From a virus (Duplodnaviria; Heunggongvirae; Uroviricota; Caudoviricetes): a stretch of 64,000 nucleotides of DNA. Of the stretch, positions 1,027 to 59,937 are shown one piece after another. A model generated the notes under the pieces. It saw nothing but the letters and a program-made list of their open reading frames with translations, searched no databases and was not told where the DNA came from. The stretch is taken from the IMG/VR virus record IMGVR_UViG_2681813318_000003; one strand, given 5' to 3'. Made by a program: the position numbers and the translations under genes. How positions within the stretch are numbered: position 1 is the first letter of the stretch; each line of letters begins with the position of its first letter.

Positions 1027-1087
1027 GTGTTTTTCTCTTATCGTTTAGTTATTACATTCTTACACAAATTAAGTAAGTATTTACCTA

Positions 1088-2773
1088 TCATTTAACGCAT
1101 TTGAAAACGTATACGCTGACTGTGATCCCTGTGTCTTCAAACTCGTTGGTAAACGACTTCCCTCTGGCATAAACGTAATTATCCATCGTCATCCAGTCCA
1201 GTATTGGCGCAGTGCCCGGCAATACTGCTACAAGACGCCCGCCGACTTTCAGATGCCCCAGCGCAGCCAGCGTGTGCTCTCTATGACGACCAAGCGAGTA
1301 CGGCGGGTTCATAACGATTTTGTCGAACTGATAACCTGCGTTGTCCTCAGACCACTTTATGAAGTCGCAGCAAATCGTGTTCGTATACCCTTTTCCACGC
1401 AGGATATCAGCGAAGAGAGGTGCGATTTCTATGCAGGTAACATCTTCCAGATCGGCGTTAATATAGGCCAGAAGATCCCCACGTCCGGCTTGAGGCTCCA
1501 ACAGCTTCTCACCAGGCTTCAATTCAGTGGCTCTGGCAACGTACTCAGCAATCAAGCGTGGGGTAGGGTAGAACTGGTGTGATTTTGTATCCGGTATTAA
1601 ACCGGTAGCCACAATCGTATTTAGCGTATGGCCGATCTCATACGGGAACTGCCAGTGCTTTTTCTCCTGCACGCCGCCAATGAAGCTCAGTGTGCGCTCA
1701 AGCTCTTCCACCTGCGACTTCTGGAGAGCTGAATCAGAGAAGTACCATACGCCTTTGTCTTTGCTCAATCGCCCGTCACGAAGCGCAGTGCGAACCGGCA
1801 TGGAGATCGTCTTCTGGATTAACCCGAACTGCTTTGGTGCCCGTGTTTTTGGCGCAGTTCGGCATGGCGCGGGAATTGCAGCAGGCATACTGTAAGCCAG
1901 CACCTCATTCAACTTCCAGGCCACGTCAGGATGTATTTCAAAGTGAACGTTGCCGTTCTTGAACATCTTCACGCGCATCAGATTTCCATCGACGTTCATC
2001 CAGTCACCGGTCTGGCAGTCGTTTGCCCGATACGCAGCTGATAGCACCTCAGCAGTGCGGTTGATGGTAATAAATTCTTTGTGCGCGAAGAAATGAAGCA
2101 AGACACGCAGATCGTCGATGTAGTCCTCTTTGCGATAGTTCACGCTAACGCTGTCCCGCCAGAAATCAGAAATGCAGTCAGCGATTATCAGACGCTCGCT
2201 GAAACCGTTTGTCTTATTTGTCTTGTGCGCAGGACTCAGCGCCTTAAACAAGCCATACACGCGCTCAGAGAGATATTTGTGCCTGTCATTCAGCAAATTA
2301 AGCATCGTGGGTATGACCGTTTCTGCTTTGAACTCCGGTACACCAACGAACTCTTTAACCTTCATCTGGTAGCCGGTTCTGTCAGTTTTGATGACTTCCT
2401 GTTTGCCCTCTATAAACTGCTCGCGCCACTCATCTCGACGGGAAGCTGGCATGATCAGCAAAACGTTAGTCATATCCGTGACCTTCCTCCAGTACTCGGC
2501 CCAAATATTCTGTTTCACCCATTCCAGATCGACTTTATCCAACCAACCTCGATTTAAACGCGAGCGATCTTCATCTGGTCGATGGTTTAGTCGCAGCAGG
2601 CGATTAATCATGTTGTGGCGTTCGTCGCCATAAACGAAGTCGTGTACCTGATACATGAAGGCGATCTCTTTCTCGCACTCGGCCACGATTTCGTGGATGA
2701 CATTCATTTCCTGACGATAGTCGATAGCCGTGTTTGAGCTGGCATCGTCGATGATGGAAAGGGCTGTATTCAT
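1088..2773 (-). CDS. putative N6-adenine methyltransferase domain protein with ~350-aa N-terminal extension
   Basis: C-terminal third carries FYPTP, LEPQAGRGDLL (SAM-binding motif I-like) and NPPY (motif IV); N-terminal part has no motif I recognise. Confidence 0.55.
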   Translation of the reverse strand: MNTALSIIDDASSNTAIDYRQEMNVIHEIVAECEKEIAFMYQVHDFVYGDERHNMINRLLRLNHRPDEDRSRLNRGWLDKVDLEWVKQNIWAEYWRKVTDMTNVLLIMPASRRDEWREQFIEGKQEVIKTDRTGYQMKVKEFVGVPEFKAETVIPTMLNLLNDRHKYLSERVYGLFKALSPAHKTNKTNGFSERLIIADCISDFWRDSVSVNYRKEDYIDDLRVLLHFFAHKEFITINRTAEVLSAAYRANDCQTGDWMNVDGNLMRVKMFKNGNVHFEIHPDVAWKLNEVLAYSMPAAIPAPCRTAPKTRAPKQFGLIQKTISMPVRTALRDGRLSKDKGVWYFSDSALQKSQVEELERTLSFIGGVQEKKHWQFPYEIGHTLNTIVATGLIPDTKSHQFYPTPRLIAEYVARATELKPGEKLLEPQAGRGDLLAYINADLEDVTCIEIAPLFADILRGKGYTNTICCDFIKWSEDNAGYQFDKIVMNPPYSLGRHREHTLAALGHLKVGGRLVAVLPGTAPILDWMTMDNYVYARGKSFTNEFEDTGITVSVYVFKCVK

Positions 2774-3484: not shown

Positions 3485-3781
3485 GTGTTTTCCTTAATGC
3501 TTAAACAAGTTGTTTTCTAATTGGATTTATTGTGATGTGGCATAAAAGGGGAGCAAGCTAAACGTAAAGGTGCAAACTCTCTATTTCGGTCAACGAAACA
3601 CAAGGGCCATTTGGCCCTTGTCATTAACACGTTGCTTTACGGACTAGCGGATAAGCGAAGTAGATCGCCAGGCCAATGAGGACGCCATCAGAAATGACAG
3701 ACATCATCTTTCCCGTAAAATCCACCAACACCGCCATCACCAGAAGAGCAATGACGGTCACAAGCCGGAATCTCTCAAGCA

Positions 3782-4207: not shown

Positions 4208-4300
4208 GTGTTTTCCTTTTATTATTTGTCAGAACAAGTTGTTTTCTAGTTTCATAAATTGCTTGCGCAAAGATGGTCAATGCATATGCACTAACAACCG

Positions 4301-4993: not shown

Positions 4994-5138
4994 GTGGACT
5001 CCATCCAGTGTCAGAAAGAGTTGCGGCTGGCGATTGCCAGCCGCCTTTCTCGTTCCATCCTGGAACTGTGTCTTACCGACACATTGTCATCCTGACGCCG
5101 ATAAGATACATGATTTAATATGATAGGTAAACACTTAC

Positions 5139-5732
5139 TTACCACTTGTTGTAAATAAAACCAATGTCTTTCTTGTGAGGCGTATCGGCTGCGGAAAAAG
5201 CTGCGATCTTCGCGAGTCGATCACATATTTCATTTTCACGATGCCCGGCGTGACCTTTAACCCACTTCCAGCGAACATTATGTCGACTTGCGGCCTCATC
5301 CAGACGTTTCCACAGATCAACATTCTTTACCGGTTTTTTATCAGAAGTCATCCATCCATTACGTTTCCACCATTTCATCCACTGTGTCATGCCGTTTTTC
5401 AGATACTGGCTATCAGAGTACAAAATAACGTTGCATGGATATTTCAAACGCTCCAGCCCGATAAGTGCGCCCATCATCTCCATGCGGTTATTGGTGGTGC
5501 TATGAAAACCATCTGAGAACTCGCGTTCCTCACCACGATACTGGAGAACGATACCGTAACCGCCCGGGCCACCCGGATTTTTAAGGCAAGAGCCATCACT
5601 AAAGATTTTCACGGTTTTGAGCTGGGGATTGAACTCTACGACAGGCGTTGTGGGATTGGTGCGGGGAGAATTTTTGTTTTTGTCTTTTTTGCGAGTTTTT
5701 GCTTGCGATCGGGCTGGTGTCTTCGTCGTCAT
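5139..5732 (-). CDS. rnhA: ribonuclease H
   Basis: RNase HI-like C-terminal region (FSDGSC...GYG..., ...VKGHAGH.ENE.CD.LA); start moved to ATG 5730-5732, preceded by AGGAG. Confidence 0.85.
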
Positions 5733-6316
5733 ATAAACTCCTGAATCAATCGCCGCGCCGATTTTTTTTCCTCGCGCGTGCGCACACGCGTGCGTGTTAA
5801 TAATTATTAAAATAAACAAATTACTTCCCAGAACAGGTTTTTATAAACCTGAACTGAACGAACGAAGTGAGTGAAGTTCACCTCGAACGAAGTGAGAGGT
5901 TGTCTTTTCAGGTAATACTCTCCCAGGGAGGTGAGTATAAAATTCCTCACCAACCTGGTCGTTTCATAACCTGAAAAGCTATGGTCTAAGTCTACTGCCA
6001 GCTTAGACTTGGGAAGTTATGGATGACAGCACCCCAGAACCGAGATCTTCCCACACTTTATGAAGGGGAGTACTGGATTCAACCTCTCGAAACACCCCAG
6101 ACTCGACAATCATAAAGTGACCCTTGTCTCTGCTCACTTTGGTTCCCCCTTCCCCGACACCTATACGGCACCGGTTCTACGCTGGTAGTGAGCTTTTTTA
6201 AACCTGACGCCAGTGACGCTTACCCCCACCCATCAGGTCGAGCCTCCAGTCTACGACTGGAAACTATCATATCTTAGCACTTACAATTCACTTTATGAAT
6301 AGTTTGTACTTATCTA

Positions 6317-6547
6317 TCATTGTGATTGATTATTTTCTCGACCATGTAGTTGAACATTCAAGGCAAACACCTCATTGATCAACTCACCTAAAAGCTGTTC
6401 AACAAGTTCGCGATGCTCGCCAAGATGCAAGCACTTAATTGCCCACTCGTACAAGTTGAAAGCCTGCTCACGATCTTTCATCATTTCACGAGCCTGGGCC
6501 AGAAAATCGCTCTCTACGAGCGCAACGACATTAGTCGGGTATGACAT
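6317..6547 (-). CDS. hypothetical protein
   Basis: Start moved to ATG 6545-6547, preceded by AAGGAAAC. Confidence 0.45.
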   Translation of the reverse strand: MSYPTNVVALVESDFLAQAREMMKDREQAFNLYEWAIKCLHLGEHRELVEQLLGELINEVFALNVQLHGRENNQSQ

Positions 6548-7336: not shown

Positions 7337-7357
7337 GATAGGTAAGTGATTACCTAT
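7337..7357. promoter_or_regulatory. palindromic motif GATAGGTAAGTGATTACCTAT, 10 nt upstream of the Dam-like gene start
   Basis: Member of the recurrent GGTAAG..CTTACC palindrome family. Confidence 0.5.
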
Positions 7358-7509
7358 TTTTGCATTTGATTTTATGTCTGGCAATCAAATAAAACGCGCC
7401 AGAAATGCAAACGAGAAGCTCTCTGGCGCGTTTTTGTGGTGCTGGGTATGTGATTGGCTTACCCAGCACTATAAAGCTCTCTATGGGCTTTATTTTCAGT
7501 AGGGGGACG

Positions 7510-12266: not shown

Positions 12267-12334
12267 AAAACGAATAGTTGTTTCAGAAATTTAACGCGCC
12301 AACGCAATATACACAGATAGATAACTACCTACAA

Positions 12335-13204
12335 TTATTTTTTGATCATTCCGTACATTGCTGAGGCTTTAGCTTGCTCAACAAAGGAGGATAAATCGAC
12401 ATCACTATAGGTTGGAGACTTCAGAATCTTTCCATCGGAAATTCGAAAACCGATCATCTTATCGGTGCCATCAGCATGGCGAAATCCCAGGTCAGAAGAG
12501 TCGTATTTGCAGTTGGCCACAGCATGGCGACGCTCTTCGGCATCTGCAGGCCATAATTTTGTCATGTTGGACCGATGAATTTCGCCAACCAGCTCGACGA
12601 CATTGATACCGAGGAAATCAGCCAGTCGATAGGTCATCATGCACGCCACATAGATTTTGTTCATTACACGGCGCAGTTCCTGAATCAGCTCAGAATCCTT
12701 AACAGTCTTGTTCTCAAGTTTATCTGCCAGCTCTTCGAGCATACATGACGCCTCACGAGCTTCCTGAAATGGCATTGCCATATCATCGAAAACAGTGTTA
12801 CCAGGCACAAAAATTGTCTGCATAAAGCGATCAATGCTCTGTTCCTGCGTGTAATAGGTCATGCCGGTAGAAATACCACCTTTGATGGCGACCATCGTAC
12901 CAACACCAACGTATAAAAAGTCGGCCATTGCATCCAGCAGTTGCTCAATATCCCCATTCATTGCGGCTGGAATACCTTCCACTACAGCTTCTTCATGAAT
13001 CAGGCTTGCACGGAGACGAAGCAGCTCTGGTGTCGGCATAACGCGTCTCGGATGCTGGAAGAGTTCATGAAACTGATCGACCATCTTGTAAATACTTTCA
13101 GTAGCTACACCATGACCTTCATGCAACTCATATGGTTCTGGCTTAAATCCAATGAGTCGATCGGTGGCAAGTTTCAGGTGGTCAGTCAGTTTGGTAAAGT
13201 TCAT
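12335..13204 (-). CDS. hypothetical protein, possibly an all-alpha NTP pyrophosphohydrolase (MazG/HisE-like)
   Basis: Two regions with EE..E and E...D acidic patterns on predicted helices; weak. Confidence 0.4.
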   Translation of the reverse strand: MNFTKLTDHLKLATDRLIGFKPEPYELHEGHGVATESIYKMVDQFHELFQHPRRVMPTPELLRLRASLIHEEAVVEGIPAAMNGDIEQLLDAMADFLYVGVGTMVAIKGGISTGMTYYTQEQSIDRFMQTIFVPGNTVFDDMAMPFQEAREASCMLEELADKLENKTVKDSELIQELRRVMNKIYVACMMTYRLADFLGINVVELVGEIHRSNMTKLWPADAEERRHAVANCKYDSSDLGFRHADGTDKMIGFRISDGKILKSPTYSDVDLSSFVEQAKASAMYGMIKK

Positions 13205-14424: not shown

Positions 14425-14528
14425 GTGTTTTCCTTTTGCTTATTGATGTGTTTAAACAAGTTGTTATCTTATTTGTTTAAACAAGGTTTACAAATCAAAG
14501 AGAAGGTGGGGATATCCCCCACCATATG

Positions 14529-16861: not shown

Positions 16862-16883
16862 GGGCCACTAAATATAGTGGCCC
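16862..16883 (-). terminator. hairpin GGGCCACTA-AATA-TAGTGGCCC between the RuvC-like gene and nrdA
   Basis: 9-bp stem; minus-strand downstream sequence is TCTTTATTTGG. Confidence 0.45.
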
Positions 16884-16917
16884 ATGTTAATAGATAAGCA
16901 CTTACCTATCAACGAGA

Positions 16918-21461: not shown

Positions 21462-21782
21462 GTGTTTTTCCTTTGTGGTTATTTGATACAAATCTTAAGC
21501 TTGCTCGAGAGGTGAGCAACCAAGACAGCACGGCACAGAAGAACATCAACAGGCATAGTATTACAAAATAAATAGGTAAGTGAATACCTACCAAAATTGT
21601 TGAATGGATTGCTTACAAGGCGGCTAGAGTTTCATTGAAGTGCTTAGATGTATATGGTAGGCAAAAGTCTCATCGTTACATATGAATGAACTATCTCATG
21701 GGTCATGTATCATTTGATATTTTTATTATCAACAATTACTGTATAAGAGGAATTTTCCAAATTGAAAAAGGATTGATTATCA

Positions 21783-23041: not shown

Positions 23042-23142
23042 TATGCTACCAGCGGTAATTGATAGTCTGTCAACGGTTCGCCGTATGCTGCCAACTGTTT
23101 TTGGTATGCTGCCAGCGGCAAATCAAGTATGCTGTCAGCGGT
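23042..23142. repeat. five iterons (TATGCTRYCAGCGGT-like) upstream of repA
   Basis: Copies start at 23042, 23064, 23084, 23105 and 23128, spaced 20-23 bp. Confidence 0.8.
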
Positions 23143-23162
23143 TGAATGACAAAGGTGTCCAC

Positions 23163-24257
23163 ATGTCCACAAAAAATAAAAAAGGTAAAAATAACAAAGA
23201 AGTAGAAGATAATCTCGACAACTTTGAAGAAGGTTCCCTTGAATTGTACACAGGGGAACTTGTCCCTAATAGCAACAATACAGTCCAACCAATTGCGTTG
23301 ATGCGGCTGGGGTTGTTCGTGCCCACGCTCAAGGGGACAAAATACAGCAAGCGTAACAAGCCAAATGAGATCGATGCTTCAAAGGAGCTTGTTCAGCTCG
23401 AAGTAGCCCGTTCTGAAGGTTATTCCGATATCAAGATAACCGGTCCTCGTCTCGACATGGATCATGATTTCAAAACGTGGGTGGGCGTTGTGCGTTCGCT
23501 GGCAGAATACGGCGAACCTAACGGTCGTGTCGAGTTAAGCATCACGAAATTTGCGAAGTTTTGTGGCTATCCATCGTCACAGATCCGCAAAACACTCCGC
23601 GACCGGCTTACAAACAGTCTTTTGAAGATCATGCGTACAACTCTGTCTTTTCAGAGAACGTATGAAGAAAAGAACGTCGACGGCTCTAACAAGATCTCGC
23701 TTCTGATGGTGCACCTCATCAATAGCGTGGACTACAACGAGCAGAAAGATACGGTGGTGTTCTATGCAGAACCGAAGCTGGCCGAACTATATCGCTTTGA
23801 CCATAAGGTTCTTTTGCAGTTAAAGGTTATCAATAAGCTACCACGCAAAGAAACAGCACAGGCTCTGTACACCTTCATCGAAAGTCTTCCAACCAAGCCT
23901 GCGCCGGTATCGCTTGCTCGATTACGTGCGCGACTCAATTTGAGTAGCAGGAATGTCAGCTCGCAGAATCAGACTATACGTAACGGCTTAAAAGCTCTCC
24001 AAGATTTGGGCTATCTCGAATACAGCGAGATTAAGCGAGGGCGGTCGATCTATATCCAGATTCACAGCCGCAATCCAAAACTCAAAGTCGCACCGCCAAA
24101 ACCTGAAGACATCGAACCCAAAAAACCAGATGAGAAAGCTGGGGAAATTGATGCCAAACAGAACATTATCAACAAGATAACCGAACTTTCGCAGAATTTG
24201 ACGCCTGAAAATATCAAGATGATTGAGATCCTTTCCAATAGTCTCAAACTGCTTTGA
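23163..24257 (+). CDS. repA: iteron-type plasmid replication initiator
   Basis: Flanked on both sides by iterons; start moved to ATG 23163 (AAAGGTG upstream) because the first 40 codons of the track ORF are iteron DNA. Confidence 0.75.
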   Translation: MSTKNKKGKNNKEVEDNLDNFEEGSLELYTGELVPNSNNTVQPIALMRLGLFVPTLKGTKYSKRNKPNEIDASKELVQLEVARSEGYSDIKITGPRLDMDHDFKTWVGVVRSLAEYGEPNGRVELSITKFAKFCGYPSSQIRKTLRDRLTNSLLKIMRTTLSFQRTYEEKNVDGSNKISLLMVHLINSVDYNEQKDTVVFYAEPKLAELYRFDHKVLLQLKVINKLPRKETAQALYTFIESLPTKPAPVSLARLRARLNLSSRNVSSQNQTIRNGLKALQDLGYLEYSEIKRGRSIYIQIHSRNPKLKVAPPKPEDIEPKKPDEKAGEIDAKQNIINKITELSQNLTPENIKMIEILSNSLKLL

Positions 24258-25384: not shown

Positions 25385-25599
25385 GCTGCCACCTCTTTGA
25401 TTACATCAAATGCTGAATTAAATACGAGCACGATAGCCAAAGCGTTTATGACTACTTCGTTCACCGGGGAAAATACTTTACGAATGACACCAGTGAAAAT
25501 GCAGTCGATGACAAAAGCTATTGACACGATGAGTAACAAGTATTCAATAAAAATCTTCATGATAGGTAGATACTAACTTATATAAATTTTACTGTAAAC

Positions 25600-26356: not shown

Positions 26357-26412
26357 GTTTTCTTATCCTTTTAAACAAATTGTTTTCTTAATAAGATAAT
26401 TGCGATAAAAAA

Positions 26413-27511: not shown

Positions 27512-27540
27512 ATAATAAGTAAGTACTTATATATTTTCAA
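27512..27540 (-). promoter_or_regulatory. sigma70-like promoter TTGAAA-17-TATTAT
   Basis: -35 at 27535-27540 and -10 at 27512-27517 on the minus strand; directly after the terminator, ~25 nt before the 27482 start. Confidence 0.5.
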
Positions 27541-29921: not shown

Positions 29922-30950
29922 TTACAGAGAGTCCAGCTCTCTCAGTAGGTCATCCAGACCTTCATCTTCCGTCGCAGATGCGGTTGCTACAGATGTCGCT
30001 GCGACTGCTTCAGACTCTTTGACTGATACGGCAACGGCAGCGGAACTTGCCTCTGGTTTAAATTCAGTTTCAACGGCACGGAGGATTTCTTCATCAACCA
30101 GACTGGTTGGTTCAGAAGCCGGTGTGTGCGCGGTTGCTACAGCCGTCGCTCCTTCTGTATGACCAGTGACAGAGCCAAATCCAGGTAGTGCCGCAGCCGA
30201 TGTTTTCGCGGTTGAGGAAATTGCTGGTGCAGATGCTGCGGCAGTTGGTGCAGCGATGCCAATCAGACGACCCATAGTGCGAACTGTCGACAGAAGACGA
30301 GTTTCATCAGCCTGATTTGCGTATGCGATCAGATCATGCTGAGTGTTCCAGAATTTATCTTCGATATCGCCTTTGTAGACTTTACGCTTAGGCGAGACGT
30401 CATATTTGGTATCGCGACCAGAGCCAGTACGTTTAATCAGGAATGCGTAGCCTTCCTCTTTGCTCAGTGGATTGCCGATATCATCAGCGATGTCTTCGGT
30501 GATTGCTTTGCAGATATCATCGAATACAGTAGACGGCAGCTCGATTAACTGGCATTTCTCAGCATCTGCGAAATCCTCACGAGCAGAAAGAATGCCGTTG
30601 ACCAGGTAGCGAGGAGTGGCACGCATTTGACCGATGCGTTCTTCCATTGCTTTGTTACCCTTGTGACGAGCGCGACCTTCCATCACCATTTCGCATAGCT
30701 GACAAGCGCGACCGTGAGTATGTTGCTCACAAATATAAGCGTTGGTTGCTTCTTTACCTTCCTCGTTCTGATACTTAACGTAGTGCATACCGAAAGTCTG
30801 GAAGAACTTACCGTTTGGGTCGTCTTTATTCGGGAAGATGCGGATATAGTTGACGCCGTCTTTTAAGCGAGTCAGATCAACGTTGTTACCACGTTTGGCG
30901 GCAATGTCTTCACGAGTTTTGTTAAGCAAATCAAGTAATGTCTTAGACAT
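29922..30950 (-). CDS. putative single-stranded DNA-binding protein
   Basis: Cys/His cluster (CEQHTHGRACQLC), Ala/Ser/Thr-rich linker and acidic tail DEGLDDLLRELDSL; position in the replication module. Confidence 0.5.
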   Translation of the reverse strand: MSKTLLDLLNKTREDIAAKRGNNVDLTRLKDGVNYIRIFPNKDDPNGKFFQTFGMHYVKYQNEEGKEATNAYICEQHTHGRACQLCEMVMEGRARHKGNKAMEERIGQMRATPRYLVNGILSAREDFADAEKCQLIELPSTVFDDICKAITEDIADDIGNPLSKEEGYAFLIKRTGSGRDTKYDVSPKRKVYKGDIEDKFWNTQHDLIAYANQADETRLLSTVRTMGRLIGIAAPTAAASAPAISSTAKTSAAALPGFGSVTGHTEGATAVATAHTPASEPTSLVDEEILRAVETEFKPEASSAAVAVSVKESEAVAATSVATASATEDEGLDDLLRELDSL

Positions 30951-31067
30951 GTGTTTCTCCTTGTTGTGATTTGGCCGATGGCGCTATGCGCGTTGGGCTT
31001 TCGTTCATTCGTGGCTCTTTCGAGCTGTTAAATGATAGATCAGTACTTACTTATTATCTATCAAAAA

Positions 31068-31523
31068 TCAACGGGGAGTAATAAAGCGTTCAGAGCCTAA
31101 TCGCTCTAATTCAACGATGGCCATCTTTGACGCCTGAACGATCATGTCTCGGCGATGCGAAAAGGCGGCGACAGCATGTTTGTATATGTCTGCGATGTGC
31201 CGTGCTTCATCCAACTTCTGCCGTTTAGACAGATACTGTGGGTTTGTTTTAACCTTAGCGTCCAGTACAGATTCGTTGAACTTAATGCCGTTCATACTCA
31301 AGTTCTTACGCTCTGTGTCGTATAGCTTTGCTTCAACAGCTTCAAGGTTAAGTTTTGCTTCTGCGACACTTCTTTCTGCATGGGCGAGTTTTGAGCCATA
31401 TTCCATCAACAGGCGGGGTTGTCTACGCCAGACTTCTTCCAGATTGTCTCGGTCAAACTCGAGATCAGACATTATTTTCTCGTAAATATCGGCGATCATG
31501 CACATTTCCTTATCACTTATCAT
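31068..31523 (-). CDS. hypothetical protein
   Basis: 151-aa helical protein between the polymerase and the SSB-like gene. Confidence 0.5.
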   Translation of the reverse strand: MISDKEMCMIADIYEKIMSDLEFDRDNLEEVWRRQPRLLMEYGSKLAHAERSVAEAKLNLEAVEAKLYDTERKNLSMNGIKFNESVLDAKVKTNPQYLSKRQKLDEARHIADIYKHAVAAFSHRRDMIVQASKMAIVELERLGSERFITPR

Positions 31524-36562: not shown

Positions 36563-36657
36563 GCGTTTTTCCTTTGTTCTCTAATGAGCGTTCAACTTCT
36601 TATATAAATATATCATCATCTATCGTAAGTGGTTACTTATCGTTAAGGCTGTTTTGT

Positions 36658-38766
36658 TCACTTTAAAATGATACGAGATAGTTCAGTAACTACAGATGAA
36701 CCAAGACTATCAACGCTCGTTACCAGGGCATGATTTGAGTAAAATCTCTCCGGTGCGTCAGTCATGATGCCAATTGCCATCAAATCAATATCAGTCTGCG
36801 TTTCAATTTGCTTCGCAACTGAACGCAAATGAGCGTCAAAACCTCTCCCAACAGCCCACGGCGCGCCATCACTCAGAACAAGCATGATCTTCCTGTCCTC
36901 CAAGCGACCGGAAAATAACGATGCAAGGCTGGCTATGCTTTCACCATCCACGTTATTAAGAAGTGGGAATGTGTAGCCTACGCACCCCATACGTGAGCGA
37001 ACTTCGCGAGAATTTACCTTTTCATTCCAATTTTTGATGATAGGTAGCATTAAAGATTCAAAGCGAGAGAACTCATACTTGACAGCCTTAAGTTCTCCTG
37101 CCGCCATATGACTACCAAATGTAGTGAAGCCGGTGATAATGTTGGGAACATTTATTCGATCAAGGGCATCTGCGATGGTATATGCACTTGCAAGAGCCAA
37201 TTGTATCGTTATACCACTCATTGAACCTGATAAATCAATCACTTGTTGAACACAGGCGTTAACGGCTTTAGATTCTTCTTTTTTACGAAACACGCGATCA
37301 TCATTCATTGCTAATCTGTAGATACTAGAACCATGAATGCGCCCCCGACGCTGGCCCGGTATAAACTGAACTCTGTTTCTGCTTGCTATTGCTCGCTCCA
37401 GGTCTTTTGCCAGCGTCGACGAAACACCTGACGAAAGATGCTTTTCAATATATTTGTCGAAGAGCTGGTTGCCTTCAGGAACGATGCGATAGCGGCTGAT
37501 TGGATATCCTCCTAAATCAATATCGGAGAATGTTTTAATAAGCCGTTTGATATGGGCTTCTGCCTGATCAATCGAGCCGATGAAGTCGTATGAGCGATTG
37601 TATGGCCTGTATTCGCTTTTCGAGCTTTCTGTTAACTCGCTTTTAATCGTTTCGGATAGAGCATCTTCTGTCATGCCTCCGACTTCATCTTCTATGCTAT
37701 CCAGCTCCTCTAAAGCCTCTTCCAGACTCATTTTTGACGGAGTTGGAATATCTGAAGAGCCGTCTTCTGTCGTTTTTCTTTTTTCGTGGTCAGCGATAAA
37801 TGATTCTGACACCGCGTTATCAGAAGCATCAGAATCTGATACCTCTTTATCATTTTCTGTATCATCGAATATTGTTTCTGATGATTCAGAATTATCTGAA
37901 TCATCACTGTCGTTATTATCATGTTTGTGCTTACTGTGTGATTCTGATTTGATAGATTTGTGATTATCTAACGCTGAGGGTGTCTCATGATCTTCGTTGT
38001 CTTCATTGTTTTCTCCAGAGGCATCCGTCTGGTCAGCGTCTGAAGGATCGGAAGTTTTTCCCGGAGCTGACTCCTTACCTTTGCTTTCACTTTCAGTGTC
38101 TTTGAGGATCTTAGCTATGGTCGCAGCCACCTTTACACAATCCTCGGTGCAAGACATGTTACGCACGGCCACATCGATACCATGTTCTTTTAATAATGAA
38201 ATTGGTTTCTCAATGACAGGCCAATATTCATCCATGAAATCTACGAACGGTGCTTGGCCATCCCAGGCTCTTACAACCGGACAGAGAAAGAAGTTTAGAA
38301 AAAGCGCGCGCTGATCTTTGCCACAATAAGCAATAGCCTCTGAAGCCTTTGGTTTAAAGACTTTTTCGATTATAAGGCGCTGAGTTGCCATCAGATTACG
38401 TCTTGTTCCGTTAAAGACCTGACCCATTTTTCGCTCGATGAACACGTCTTCTAAGGCATTCCATAGCGACCAGGAAGGAACGCGTCCTTTTTCTCTCATT
38501 TTGTTGGACACACGAATATCGGTAAACAAAATGTGAGCAACCTCATGATCGAGAAATCCGCGCACAGCATTCATCAATGCCGGTGTTGCGTTATCCGGGA
38601 TTGATGGGATGTTTACGAGAATTGGCTCTCCATCATCGTTATAGCGTACATAAGCGTCGTCCCCTCGTTCTGCAACAGGGATGTTTTTACCTGAAAGGAG
38701 AGCGACTACTCGTTTTACACTGTCACGGAAGTCCTGAACCTCTTTGATAGAACGTTTTTTAGACAT
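36658..38766 (-). CDS. von Willebrand factor A domain protein (CobT-like)
   Basis: C-terminal VWA with MIDAS DLSGSMSG; long Asp/Ser/Glu-rich central linker; immediately upstream of the CobS-like gene. Confidence 0.75.
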   Translation of the reverse strand: MSKKRSIKEVQDFRDSVKRVVALLSGKNIPVAERGDDAYVRYNDDGEPILVNIPSIPDNATPALMNAVRGFLDHEVAHILFTDIRVSNKMREKGRVPSWSLWNALEDVFIERKMGQVFNGTRRNLMATQRLIIEKVFKPKASEAIAYCGKDQRALFLNFFLCPVVRAWDGQAPFVDFMDEYWPVIEKPISLLKEHGIDVAVRNMSCTEDCVKVAATIAKILKDTESESKGKESAPGKTSDPSDADQTDASGENNEDNEDHETPSALDNHKSIKSESHSKHKHDNNDSDDSDNSESSETIFDDTENDKEVSDSDASDNAVSESFIADHEKRKTTEDGSSDIPTPSKMSLEEALEELDSIEDEVGGMTEDALSETIKSELTESSKSEYRPYNRSYDFIGSIDQAEAHIKRLIKTFSDIDLGGYPISRYRIVPEGNQLFDKYIEKHLSSGVSSTLAKDLERAIASRNRVQFIPGQRRGRIHGSSIYRLAMNDDRVFRKKEESKAVNACVQQVIDLSGSMSGITIQLALASAYTIADALDRINVPNIITGFTTFGSHMAAGELKAVKYEFSRFESLMLPIIKNWNEKVNSREVRSRMGCVGYTFPLLNNVDGESIASLASLFSGRLEDRKIMLVLSDGAPWAVGRGFDAHLRSVAKQIETQTDIDLMAIGIMTDAPERFYSNHALVTSVDSLGSSVVTELSRIILK

Positions 38767-38864
38767 GGCTAATCCTTTGTTATGAAAACAAATTATTTAC
38801 TAGTGTGTTTAATGTAGCACTGCGCGAACAGGGAACTAAGCCATTCGCGCAGGGAGAAGAGGGG

Positions 38865-39077
38865 TTAACAGATTCTGACGGCTAAAGACCCGGAGCCGGT
38901 ATTGAGAAGCGTGAAGCGTTTGTTGTTAAGTTCGAATATAAAGCCAGTTGTGTCATTCACACCAACCTGAATCTGCTCATTCGGTAGATCGGTGAGGATG
39001 TCAGCTACACACTCATCAGCTAATTTCTGTACGTGTCCGATCTCAAGAGCGATTAGGCTGGAAATAGTGGTGTTCAT
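38865..39077 (-). CDS. hypothetical protein
   Basis: 70-aa ORF, divergent from the HTH gene. Confidence 0.4.
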   Translation of the reverse strand: MNTTISSLIALEIGHVQKLADECVADILTDLPNEQIQVGVNDTTGFIFELNNKRFTLLNTGSGSLAVRIC

Positions 39078-39283
39078 TCAATCAATCCATTCTAACTTAT
39101 ACTATGGTAAGGAATACTACTAAAATTTGTATCAATACTGAATACATTCATATCATATGCAAGTTAATTTTCTTACCTATTTTGGGCTAGTTTTTCTCCG
39201 TGCAATGGCCTTTAACCGGTCTTTTAAGTGCCTATCGAAAAAAATGATAATAGCTTTACAACCCTAACCTTTGATGTAATATC

Positions 39284-39297
39284 GGTAAGCACTTACC
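39284..39297. promoter_or_regulatory. perfect palindrome GGTAAGCACTTACC (candidate operator)
   Basis: 32 nt upstream of the HTH regulator ATG; same family recurs at more than 12 gene junctions. Confidence 0.5.
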
Positions 39298-53430: not shown

Positions 53431-53473
53431 GTGCTTTCCTTTGTTTTTTAAACAAATTGTTTTCTAGTATTAG

Positions 53474-54223: not shown

Positions 54224-54330
54224 CTGGTAGGTAGTTACTTACTTATCACAATGGACGGATGATAGCGACTGGTGTCAGTTTTTGGAAGTGAAAACGGAAG
54301 GGAGTTGTTCTGGTGGTGTCTTTTAAAAGA

Positions 54331-56650: not shown

Positions 56651-56775
56651 TGGAGAGTTCCCTTTGCGTATATAATTATCGTCTGAAACAACTTGTTTTC
56701 TTATATGTGATATAGCCTAAATGCCTACGGCTGCGGTGTAAAGGTTTAATGATAGGTACATAGGTGGGCTTAATA

Positions 56776-59637: not shown

Positions 59638-59706
59638 GAAAAGTCAAATCGGGATGGCGGATTTATATCACATTTCACCCTTTTGTTGTAGGTGTGTGCT
59701 TACCTA

Positions 59707-59937
59707 TCATTCAGCATTGCAACGGACTGATGAGAAAGCACCTACTCCAACCCATCGCCAGTTATAGATGCTACCCGCTTTGTATAAGGTATAGTCGTTC
59801 ACTTTTTTAACAGCATATATGGGTATGACTGTCTCCTGTCCACCAATGCTAGCCTCACCATAACATATAGGTGTCGGCAATTTCTGGCAGCCAGTAAGAG
59901 AGAGAACAACAGCTATTGTTAGAAATAATCTTTTCAT
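59707..59937 (-). CDS. small lipoprotein
   Basis: Lipobox LSLTGC; 76-aa precursor; directly downstream of the tail-fibre genes. Confidence 0.6.
   Translation of the reverse strand: MKRLFLTIAVVLSLTGCQKLPTPICYGEASIGGQETVIPIYAVKKVNDYTLYKAGSIYNWRWVGVGAFSSVRCNAE

Follow-up and report, generated by a model that had tools for sequence, protein, structure and literature searches.

In the cluster A mycobacteriophages, of which L5 with its repressor gp71 is an example, more than 20 copies of the repressor site are spread over the genome, at promoters and in short intergenic spaces, late operons included (PMC9283540). The L5 sites are asymmetric 13-mers bound by a monomer that has two DNA-binding domains (a helix-turn-helix and a Stoperator domain), with an orientation that follows transcription (PMC9283540). 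The site consensus varies by immunity group. Phage P1 has 11 late promoters that depend on Lpa (PMC10695390). Few phage-plasmids are as common in clinical Enterobacteriaceae as the SSU5-type elements, whose control of lysis and lysogeny is essentially uncharacterised; one possibly relevant 2026 preprint aside, we found no published description of their regulation or of the motif considered below.

The window, by which we mean the whole 64,000-nt stretch analysed (IMG/VR record IMGVR_UViG_2681813318_000003), comes from an SSU5/pHCM2-type phage-plasmid. Megablast gives approximately 98% identity both with Escherichia phage Cyrano, which E. coli LF82 carries as a plasmid prophage, and with numerous E. 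coli plasmids about 110 kb in size; more distant relatives are found in Klebsiella, Enterobacter, Salmonella, Yersinia and Citrobacter. Its gene map, which we built from the Cyrano annotation and tblastn mapping, consists of these blocks, which with few exceptions are on the minus strand: genes for replication, recombination and nucleotide metabolism; a module of an XRE-type regulator and an integrase; a tRNA cluster; ligase, primase and helicase; ParA; and the lysis genes with part of the tail fibre.

Some local differences from Cyrano are evident. The replication initiator of the window (23043-24257) is just 49% identical to Cyrano RepA, while the flanking genes are 96-100% identical, which indicates a replicon swap. 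Between the integrase and the tRNA cluster lie a YafO-family toxin gene with an upstream partner ORF (41136-42091) and a 445-aa ORF that has no Pfam match (42682-44019), and both are absent from Cyrano. Outside the window, Cyrano 780-1301, annotated as a "transcriptional regulator", matches the FljA family over its full length (E 1e-80), FljA being the repressor of phase-1 flagellin. The Cyrano protein has a weak Hfq-like match in its C-terminal part, and is present in enterobacterial elements only.

A sequence-only reading of the window had described a palindrome recurring at gene junctions, including a perfect copy 32 nt upstream of the gene for a helix-turn-helix regulator. This copy exists, as the core-only sequence GGTAAGCACTTACC at 39284-39297, and is 31 nt before the ATG at 39329. 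Alignment of the copies in that reading yields an extended consensus, RATARGTAAGT·ACTTACYTATY, which is a 22-bp palindrome. Ten of the eleven other copies that it placed are sound (starting at 1068, 5122, 7337, 16889, 21571, 27514, 31034, 42627, 45600 and 54226); the one at 36620 is weak, with mismatches at 8 of 22 positions, and copies at 6297, 25561 and 59687 had been overlooked. The sites in the window, none of them assigned to a strand, are:

1068..1089, no strand: copy at the DUF4942/Ead junction; same junction in Cyrano, SSU5 and pJN2-26
5122..5143, no strand: copy at the RNase H/hyp83 junction; 22-mer scan and conservation alignment
6297..6318, no strand: copy at the hyp80/hyp81 junction; 6 mismatches
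7337..7358, no strand: copy 10 nt ahead of the Dam-like adenine methyltransferase gene; coincides in part with the -10 of a conserved promoter, TTGCCA-17-AAAAAT
16889..16910, no strand: copy at the RuvC/NrdA junction; within the spacer of TTGATA-17-TAACAT
21571..21592, no strand: copy upstream of the SbcD-like gene; 22-mer scan and conservation alignment
25561..25582, no strand: copy at the hyp59/hyp60 junction; 22-mer scan and conservation alignment
27514..27535, no strand: copy at the RecA/membrane-protein junction; inside TTGAAA-17-TATTAT, directly after a terminator
31034..31055, no strand: copy at the UvsY/SSB junction; 22-mer scan and conservation alignment
36620..36641, no strand: degenerate copy at the CobT/CobS junction, doubtful; 8 mismatches
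39284..39297, no strand: core-only copy; 1 nt 3' of the XRE -10, in a position predicted to span the transcription start
42627..42648, no strand: copy in the divergent Grx/orf445 region; 22-mer scan
45600..45621, no strand: copy after hyp39, upstream of the tRNA cluster; 22-mer scan and conservation alignment
54226..54247, no strand: copy in the divergent hyp31/orf357 region; 22-mer scan
59687..59708, no strand: copy ahead of the holin gene, with a conserved extended -10 (TGaTATAAA) starting 30 nt downstream from the dyad

The palindrome is strongly enriched against randomised sequence. The 14-mer, with at most 2 mismatches, has 8 matches in the window versus 1.55 expected, and none of 100 shuffles reaches 8. 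For the 22-mer GATAGGTAAGTACTTACCTATC, there are 11 window sites with at most 5 mismatches versus none in 100 second-order Markov simulations, and allowing 6 mismatches gives 13 window junctions versus a simulated mean of 0.11. The suggested concentration in intergenic DNA is equally clear, with the centres of all 14 copies falling within the 13.4% of the window that is intergenic (binomial P 5.9e-13). By the window gene map, three of these copies are at divergent junctions and the remainder at co-directional ones, and none of the 14 is at a convergent junction of the window. An element that is always intergenic and never convergent is tied to gene starts rather than gene ends. Several copies also coincide with sigma-70-like hexamer pairs, so the overlap with promoter-like hexamers remarked on earlier is real.

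A motif-like copy occurs inside the CobT coding sequence (window 37951-37972), with 7 mismatches both here and in Cyrano, where it lies at 43931. The equivalent copies in SSU5 (43660) and pJN2-26 (91931) have fewer mismatches, and this is the sole recurrent intragenic copy seen in the window and the three enterobacterial genomes. The neighbouring CobS/CobT junction, for which the window has only the weak copy, carries a good one in other lineages.

The same palindrome recurs in the genomes of related phages. Cyrano has about 20 copies, all or nearly all of them intergenic, which continue into the late operons (terminase/portal, capsid/Ig, tail genes, J/fibre and fibre/holin); Klebsiella phage pJN2-26 has 20, and in Salmonella phage SSU5 the first 100 kb contain 23. 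Matching junctions in these three genomes keep the palindrome even where the flanks have fully diverged (e.g., upstream of holin). A scan of IMG/VR for GGTAAGTACTTACC returned, outside SSU5-type contigs, just single chance-level matches in low-GC phages. Four motif types are distinguishable in four lineages, at similar kinds of junction:

Enterobacteria (the window, OV696614, MZ779062, JQ965645): GGTAAGT·ACTTACC; 14 copies in the window; allowing up to 6 mismatches, 18-23 in each genome
Acinetobacter baumannii plasmid 1, or Acinetobacter-1 (NZ_CP035046): AGTCAGTACTGACT; 27 copies; large terminase 59% identical
Acinetobacter baumannii plasmid 2, or Acinetobacter-2 (NZ_CP016299): TAGTAAGCGCTTACTA; 29 copies
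Aeromonas plasmid, 55% G+C (NZ_CP077222): CAGTAA-N4-TTACTG; 29 copies

All four variants have the frame GT.AG..CT.AC in common, and in the Aeromonas plasmid 17 of the copies are found with at most 1 mismatch, versus about 0.25 expected.

These variants bear directly on whether the sites are bound by a transcription factor of the host, which we consider extremely improbable. Elements of E. coli, Klebsiella, Salmonella, Yersinia and Photorhabdus do share one motif, as a host factor would lead one to expect. However, the two Acinetobacter baumannii plasmids have different motifs at equivalent junctions, and two motifs within one host species rule out a host factor and make the binder element-encoded. 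Judging from the site sequences, this element-encoded binder is one that has changed its specificity.

It is very unlikely that the palindromes are instead hairpins of RNA or DNA, functioning as terminators, processing sites or stabilisers at gene ends. Copies often start a few nucleotides past the upstream stop codon, and some fold to -7 to -11 kcal/mol, but several others fold no better than shuffled sequence, a consistent U tract is absent, and canonical terminators adjoin several copies as separate structures. Rfam gives tRNAs only, with no family matching the palindromes, and gene-end elements would not be expected to avoid convergent junctions while occupying three divergent 5'-5' regions. 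In none of seven site sets are the two arms more complementary, by Watson-Crick pairs, than column-shuffled controls (P 0.36-0.99), and the combinations at the variable mirror positions (5/18 and 1/22) are random. At positions 5/18, the Cyrano sites comprise five G-C, four A-T, four G-T and four A-C combinations, and in the Klebsiella relative the two positions are anti-correlated if anything. The arms therefore depart from the consensus independently, which is the behaviour of a two-fold-symmetric protein site on duplex DNA and not that of a sequence selected for base-pairing; on this pattern of substitutions, we take the palindromes to be double-stranded, two-fold-symmetric protein sites. 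With no arm co-variation, weak folding and no convergent copies, the hairpin or terminator reading was rejected.

Separate hairpins do accompany some of the sites. One of these, in the window, is:

16862-16883, minus strand: terminator-like hairpin after the RuvC/NrdA copy

Here, and at the Cyrano capsid/Ig, M/L and J/fibre junctions, a terminator-like G+C-rich hairpin is positioned approximately 5 nt downstream of the palindrome. A transcript starting just past the palindrome would miss the 5' arm of this hairpin, and read-through from upstream would include the whole of it. At other junctions, the terminator precedes the palindrome.

The candidate binder is the product of the regulator gene mentioned above, which, with its promoter and its divergent neighbour, is arranged as follows:

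39329..39715, plus strand: XRE-type helix-turn-helix protein of 128 aa, candidate binder; identical to CYRAN_45 ("putative repressor")
39255..39282, plus strand: sigma-70-like promoter of the XRE gene, TTTACA-16 nt-TAATAT, conserved across lineages, with the -10 at 39277-39282
38865..39077, minus strand: hyp46, a 70-aa ORF that heads the leftward block of CobT, CobS and DNA polymerase III alpha and is divergent from XRE

The match of the XRE protein to Pfam HTH_19 (E 7.8e-4) falls short of the curated cut-off, and its match to PHROG 8 ("transcriptional regulator") has an E value of 1.3e-11; it has no S24 peptidase domain. A structure model, of moderate confidence only, places a helix-turn-helix at residues 28-47 (helices 28-34 and 40-47). 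The best Foldseek matches of this model (C.BclI, C.AhdI, 434 Cro, HigA-DNA and lambda repressor) are weak, all with E > 0.001, and the sequence profile gives an E value of 0.07 against the PDB. As modelled, then, the candidate would be structurally an ordinary helix-turn-helix protein of the Cro/CI type.

One indication for XRE is that its predicted recognition helix changes with the motif. This helix (residues 40-47, ANNLSLIK) is invariant in enterobacterial XRE proteins that are otherwise 55-100% identical, and Photorhabdus has retained both the helix (ANNLSMIKSGK) and the enterobacterial motif. The helix is different in each of the lineages with another motif (PNVLSMIKSGE, QNMVSFIVRGK and QTSMLSMIKKGT), and in every lineage a copy or near-copy of its own motif lies just upstream of the XRE gene. 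The gene adjoins the integrase, and points away from the early block in enterobacterial and Acinetobacter elements; both Acinetobacter relatives have a small ORF at the position equivalent to hyp46. The proposal that the palindromes form an operator set for XRE thus survives in a qualified form. That the dispersed sites belong to one element-encoded regulator is well supported, by the enrichment, the exclusively intergenic placement, the retention at matching junctions, the independent arms and the lineage-specific variants; XRE is the best-fitting candidate for this regulator, by helix-motif co-variation, by the copies upstream of its gene and by its expression in lysogens.

The distribution of XRE agrees with that of the elements themselves. 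Among enterobacterial plasmids of the SSU5 type it is as widespread as the large terminase (XRE/terminase plasmid counts of 348/345 for Klebsiella, 230/208 for Escherichia, 92/93 for Enterobacter and 63/62 for Yersinia), and the gene is found in more than 800 PLSDB plasmids; a scan of representative genomes with the XRE alignment gave 6 loci only. In LF82 lysogens, transcription of XRE is ten-fold above the prophage background; the same study lists it as a putative repressor and gives a 39-fold induction of Cyrano by ciprofloxacin (PMC9928086).

In the two Acinetobacter plasmids, XRE is only 30% identical, versus 98% for the adjoining integrase and a median of 52% for the backbone, as expected if XRE must stay matched to sites distributed over the whole backbone. 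The integrase genes in question are at 12326-13100 in one plasmid and 36258-36978 in the other, pCMCVTAb1-Ab59, and the 3' end of the XRE gene appears to mark the limit of a recent exchange. Elsewhere in pCMCVTAb1-Ab59 (30780-31445), between a MoxR/CobS-like ATPase gene and dnaE, is a gene annotated as sigma-70 family. Its match to Pfam Sigma70_r2 (E 0.0026) is sub-threshold; the second Acinetobacter plasmid has a counterpart with 27% identity, and none was observed among the enterobacterial elements.

SSU5 is a special case, for it is without XRE and integrase, yet retains all of its 23 sites. At SSU5 42596-42761, the whole segment from the tRNA gene to CobT is missing, with the glutaredoxin, integrase, XRE and 70-aa genes. 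Left of the deletion, the DNA has 99.3% identity with Enterobacter plasmids bearing XRE, so the loss of XRE is recent and is uninformative on how the sites are maintained; for this reason SSU5 was rejected as evidence against XRE. On these sequences, SSU5 looks like a virulent, recent deletion derivative of a phage-plasmid.

The position of the palindrome with respect to conserved sigma-70-like elements differs from gene to gene. It covers the -10 and start at the Dam-like gene and at XRE, fills the promoter spacer at the NrdA and RecA/membrane-protein junctions, and lies near -42 at the holin gene. Such variation suits a repressor better than an activator of fixed geometry. In the divergent region between hyp46 and XRE, the best-conserved block across six enterobacterial lineages is TTTACA-16-TAATAT followed immediately by the core palindrome.

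A hexamer resembling a -10 (TATCAT or TATTAT) often abuts the palindrome, and its interpretation varies with the lineage. In the enterobacterial and Acinetobacter-2 sets it is equally frequent on the mirror side; it was therefore unusable there as a marker of promoter direction, and in the enterobacterial sites may be part of a longer symmetric site. In Acinetobacter-1, the hexamer is found at a fixed offset and on the downstream side only (7 vs 0). It is confined to the downstream side in Aeromonas also, by inspection of the listed sites, and a perfect TATAAT stands at a constant distance behind several of the copies there. Many sites have no convincing -35, and the upstream arm is conserved only slightly better than the downstream arm.

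These features raise the alternative that some other element-encoded dimer activates the lytic promoters, with the palindrome standing in for the -35, its centre approximately 18-20 bp ahead of the start; at the XRE promoter the bound dimer would also turn off the repressor gene. We consider this unlikely, but it has several points in its favor. The arrangement resembles that of the P1 late promoters, in which AAGT(G/T)ACTT is followed after 4 nt by the -10, where here AAGTACTT is followed after 3 nt by TATCAT. Hexamers like a -10 occur at a fixed 6-7 nt from the dyad in all lineages, several of them as perfect TATAAT, and the one-sided hexamers of Acinetobacter-1 and Aeromonas, the lack of a -35 at most sites, and the lytic growth of SSU5, with its sites intact and XRE gone, would all fit an activator. 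Against it, the equally frequent mirror-side hexamers of the other two sets may simply reflect a longer palindrome, the Dam-like, XRE and holin genes each have the site placed differently with respect to their conserved promoters, and a single activator of both early and late genes would be unusual. Furthermore, we found no Lpa homologue, and identified no candidate activator that is conserved in all lineages.

The regulator-like proteins of Cyrano that have Acinetobacter counterparts by tblastn are XRE, the small terminase and two proteins with a ParB N-terminal domain, and the Aeromonas plasmid, by inspection, has an XRE-type gene and two ParB-type genes. One of the ParB-like proteins might therefore be the binder, in the manner of KorB of plasmid RK2, which belongs to the partition family and also represses transcription globally from palindromes dispersed over the replicon. 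We think this improbable. The two ParB_N proteins are conserved in every lineage examined and also diverge between lineages, and a motif copy is present just upstream of their operon in Acinetobacter-1, Acinetobacter-2 and Aeromonas (weakly so in pJN2-26). It is because the ParB-like proteins share these properties, namely divergence by lineage and an upstream copy, that the support for XRE is indirect. However, only the N-terminal domain of ParB is recognised in them, with no DNA-binding domain identified, their genes head the packaging/late operon, which suggests a role in DNA packaging, and the best-conserved copy of the palindrome is at the XRE promoter.

We therefore return to XRE, and judge it somewhat probable that the palindromes are operators for an element-encoded dimeric regulator, most likely the 128-aa XRE protein, which would silence the lytic blocks; both the identity of the binder and the sign of regulation are what we infer from comparing sequences. 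In the plasmid (lysogenic) state, XRE would occupy about 25 sites per genome. Bound sites on or beside the promoters heading the replication, nucleotide-metabolism, recombination, structural and lysis blocks would keep these silent, copies inside long operons without an obvious promoter might act as roadblocks to read-through, and the core copy overlapping the transcription start of XRE would allow the protein to restrict its own synthesis. The view of XRE as a repressor is supported by the replication gene, which has no copy of this motif upstream, by ParA, which carries only the second motif described below, and by the free-living phage SSU5, from which XRE and the integrase are absent. Points that count against XRE include the copy at its own promoter, which comprises just the 14-bp core, the sub-threshold Pfam match and moderate confidence of the structure model, and CYRAN_81, which is immediately downstream of a site and is nevertheless expressed in lysogens (PMC9928086).

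A second dispersed palindrome, AAGA-AAACAAnTTGTTT, in which the 5' AAGA is orientation-specific, occurs 8 times in the window versus 0.49 expected:

2786-2798, 3503-3515, 4232-4244, 14454-14466, 26373-26385, 38786-38798, 53450-53462 and 56686-56698: copies of the second motif

It is found only in intergenic gaps without a copy of the first, at a distance of 15-40 nt from the start codon that follows, and the genes that it precedes include CobT, ParA and NrdB. Copies number 17-20 in each of Cyrano, SSU5 and pJN2-26, some of them upstream of the small terminase; the two Acinetobacter plasmids have 3 each, which is about chance level. The genome appears to be partitioned between the two site classes, and the second may represent another operator or promoter class. 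A more inclusive scheme, which we offer tentatively and with rather less assurance than the operator reading itself, is that SSU5-type elements are silenced by a single XRE protein at about 25-30 palindromic sites distributed over almost all of the lytic blocks, that repressor helix and sites have diversified jointly into at least four immunity types, and that the AAGAAAACAAnTTGTTT junctions, a complementary set, are under a second regulator.

If XRE is indeed the repressor, its operator sequence would allow the regulon and the immunity groups to be defined directly from sequence, and would offer a handle for inducing or curing SSU5-type elements. This would cover common plasmids of Klebsiella, E. 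coli and Enterobacter, as well as the backbone of Yersinia pestis pMT1. A repressor and about 25 dispersed sites that shift their specificity jointly would also bear on how heteroimmune lineages originate.

With respect to known systems, the predicted fold and the palindrome at its own promoter liken XRE to the Cro/CI-type proteins (434, lambda, C-proteins, HigA), as does the location of its gene, which adjoins the integrase and points away from the early genes. Switches of that type have few, clustered operators, whereas here there are about 25, and they are dispersed.

The comparison with P1-type plasmid prophages that had been suggested holds as an analogy of lifestyle and of dispersed operators, but does not extend to the proteins or to the form of the sites. 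As with P1 C1, the element is a plasmid prophage whose lytic functions are divided into many units, each with a copy of the same operator (AF234172 annotation). Homology to C1 or Lpa was rejected: tblastn against Cyrano and the window found no C1 homologue (best E 2.7), and the best tblastn match for Lpa has an E value of 0.46 over 52 residues. The C1 operators are annotated as single 17-bp "monovalent" sites on one strand, while the present sites have two-fold symmetry over 22 bp; and the late operons of P1 are separately under Lpa, whereas the same motif here is present in the structural and lysis operons too. The Lpa promoters are similar in part, in having a palindrome with an AAGT..ACTT core a few bases upstream of a -10 and no -35. 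However, the Lpa box is 9 bp with a central base (AAGTnACTT), its centre 9 nt from the -10, whereas here only 6.5-7.5 nt separate dyad and hexamer, conservation spans at least 22 bp, and the hexamer is one-sided in two of the four lineages.

In having sites inside the late structural and lysis operons, the element is nearer to L5 than to P1, and the operator/stoperator network of the cluster A mycobacteriophages, which likewise has more than 20 dispersed copies, is the closest functional parallel. There is no sequence relationship between the two, and the stopping of elongating RNA polymerase by bound repressor, a feature of that network, would be a putative role for the present sites. The sites also differ, being 22-bp palindromes, as does the candidate binder, a small protein with a single helix-turn-helix. 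Should XRE prove to bind them, the set would constitute a symmetric-site counterpart of the mycobacteriophage stoperator network in the phage-plasmids of Gram-negative bacteria.
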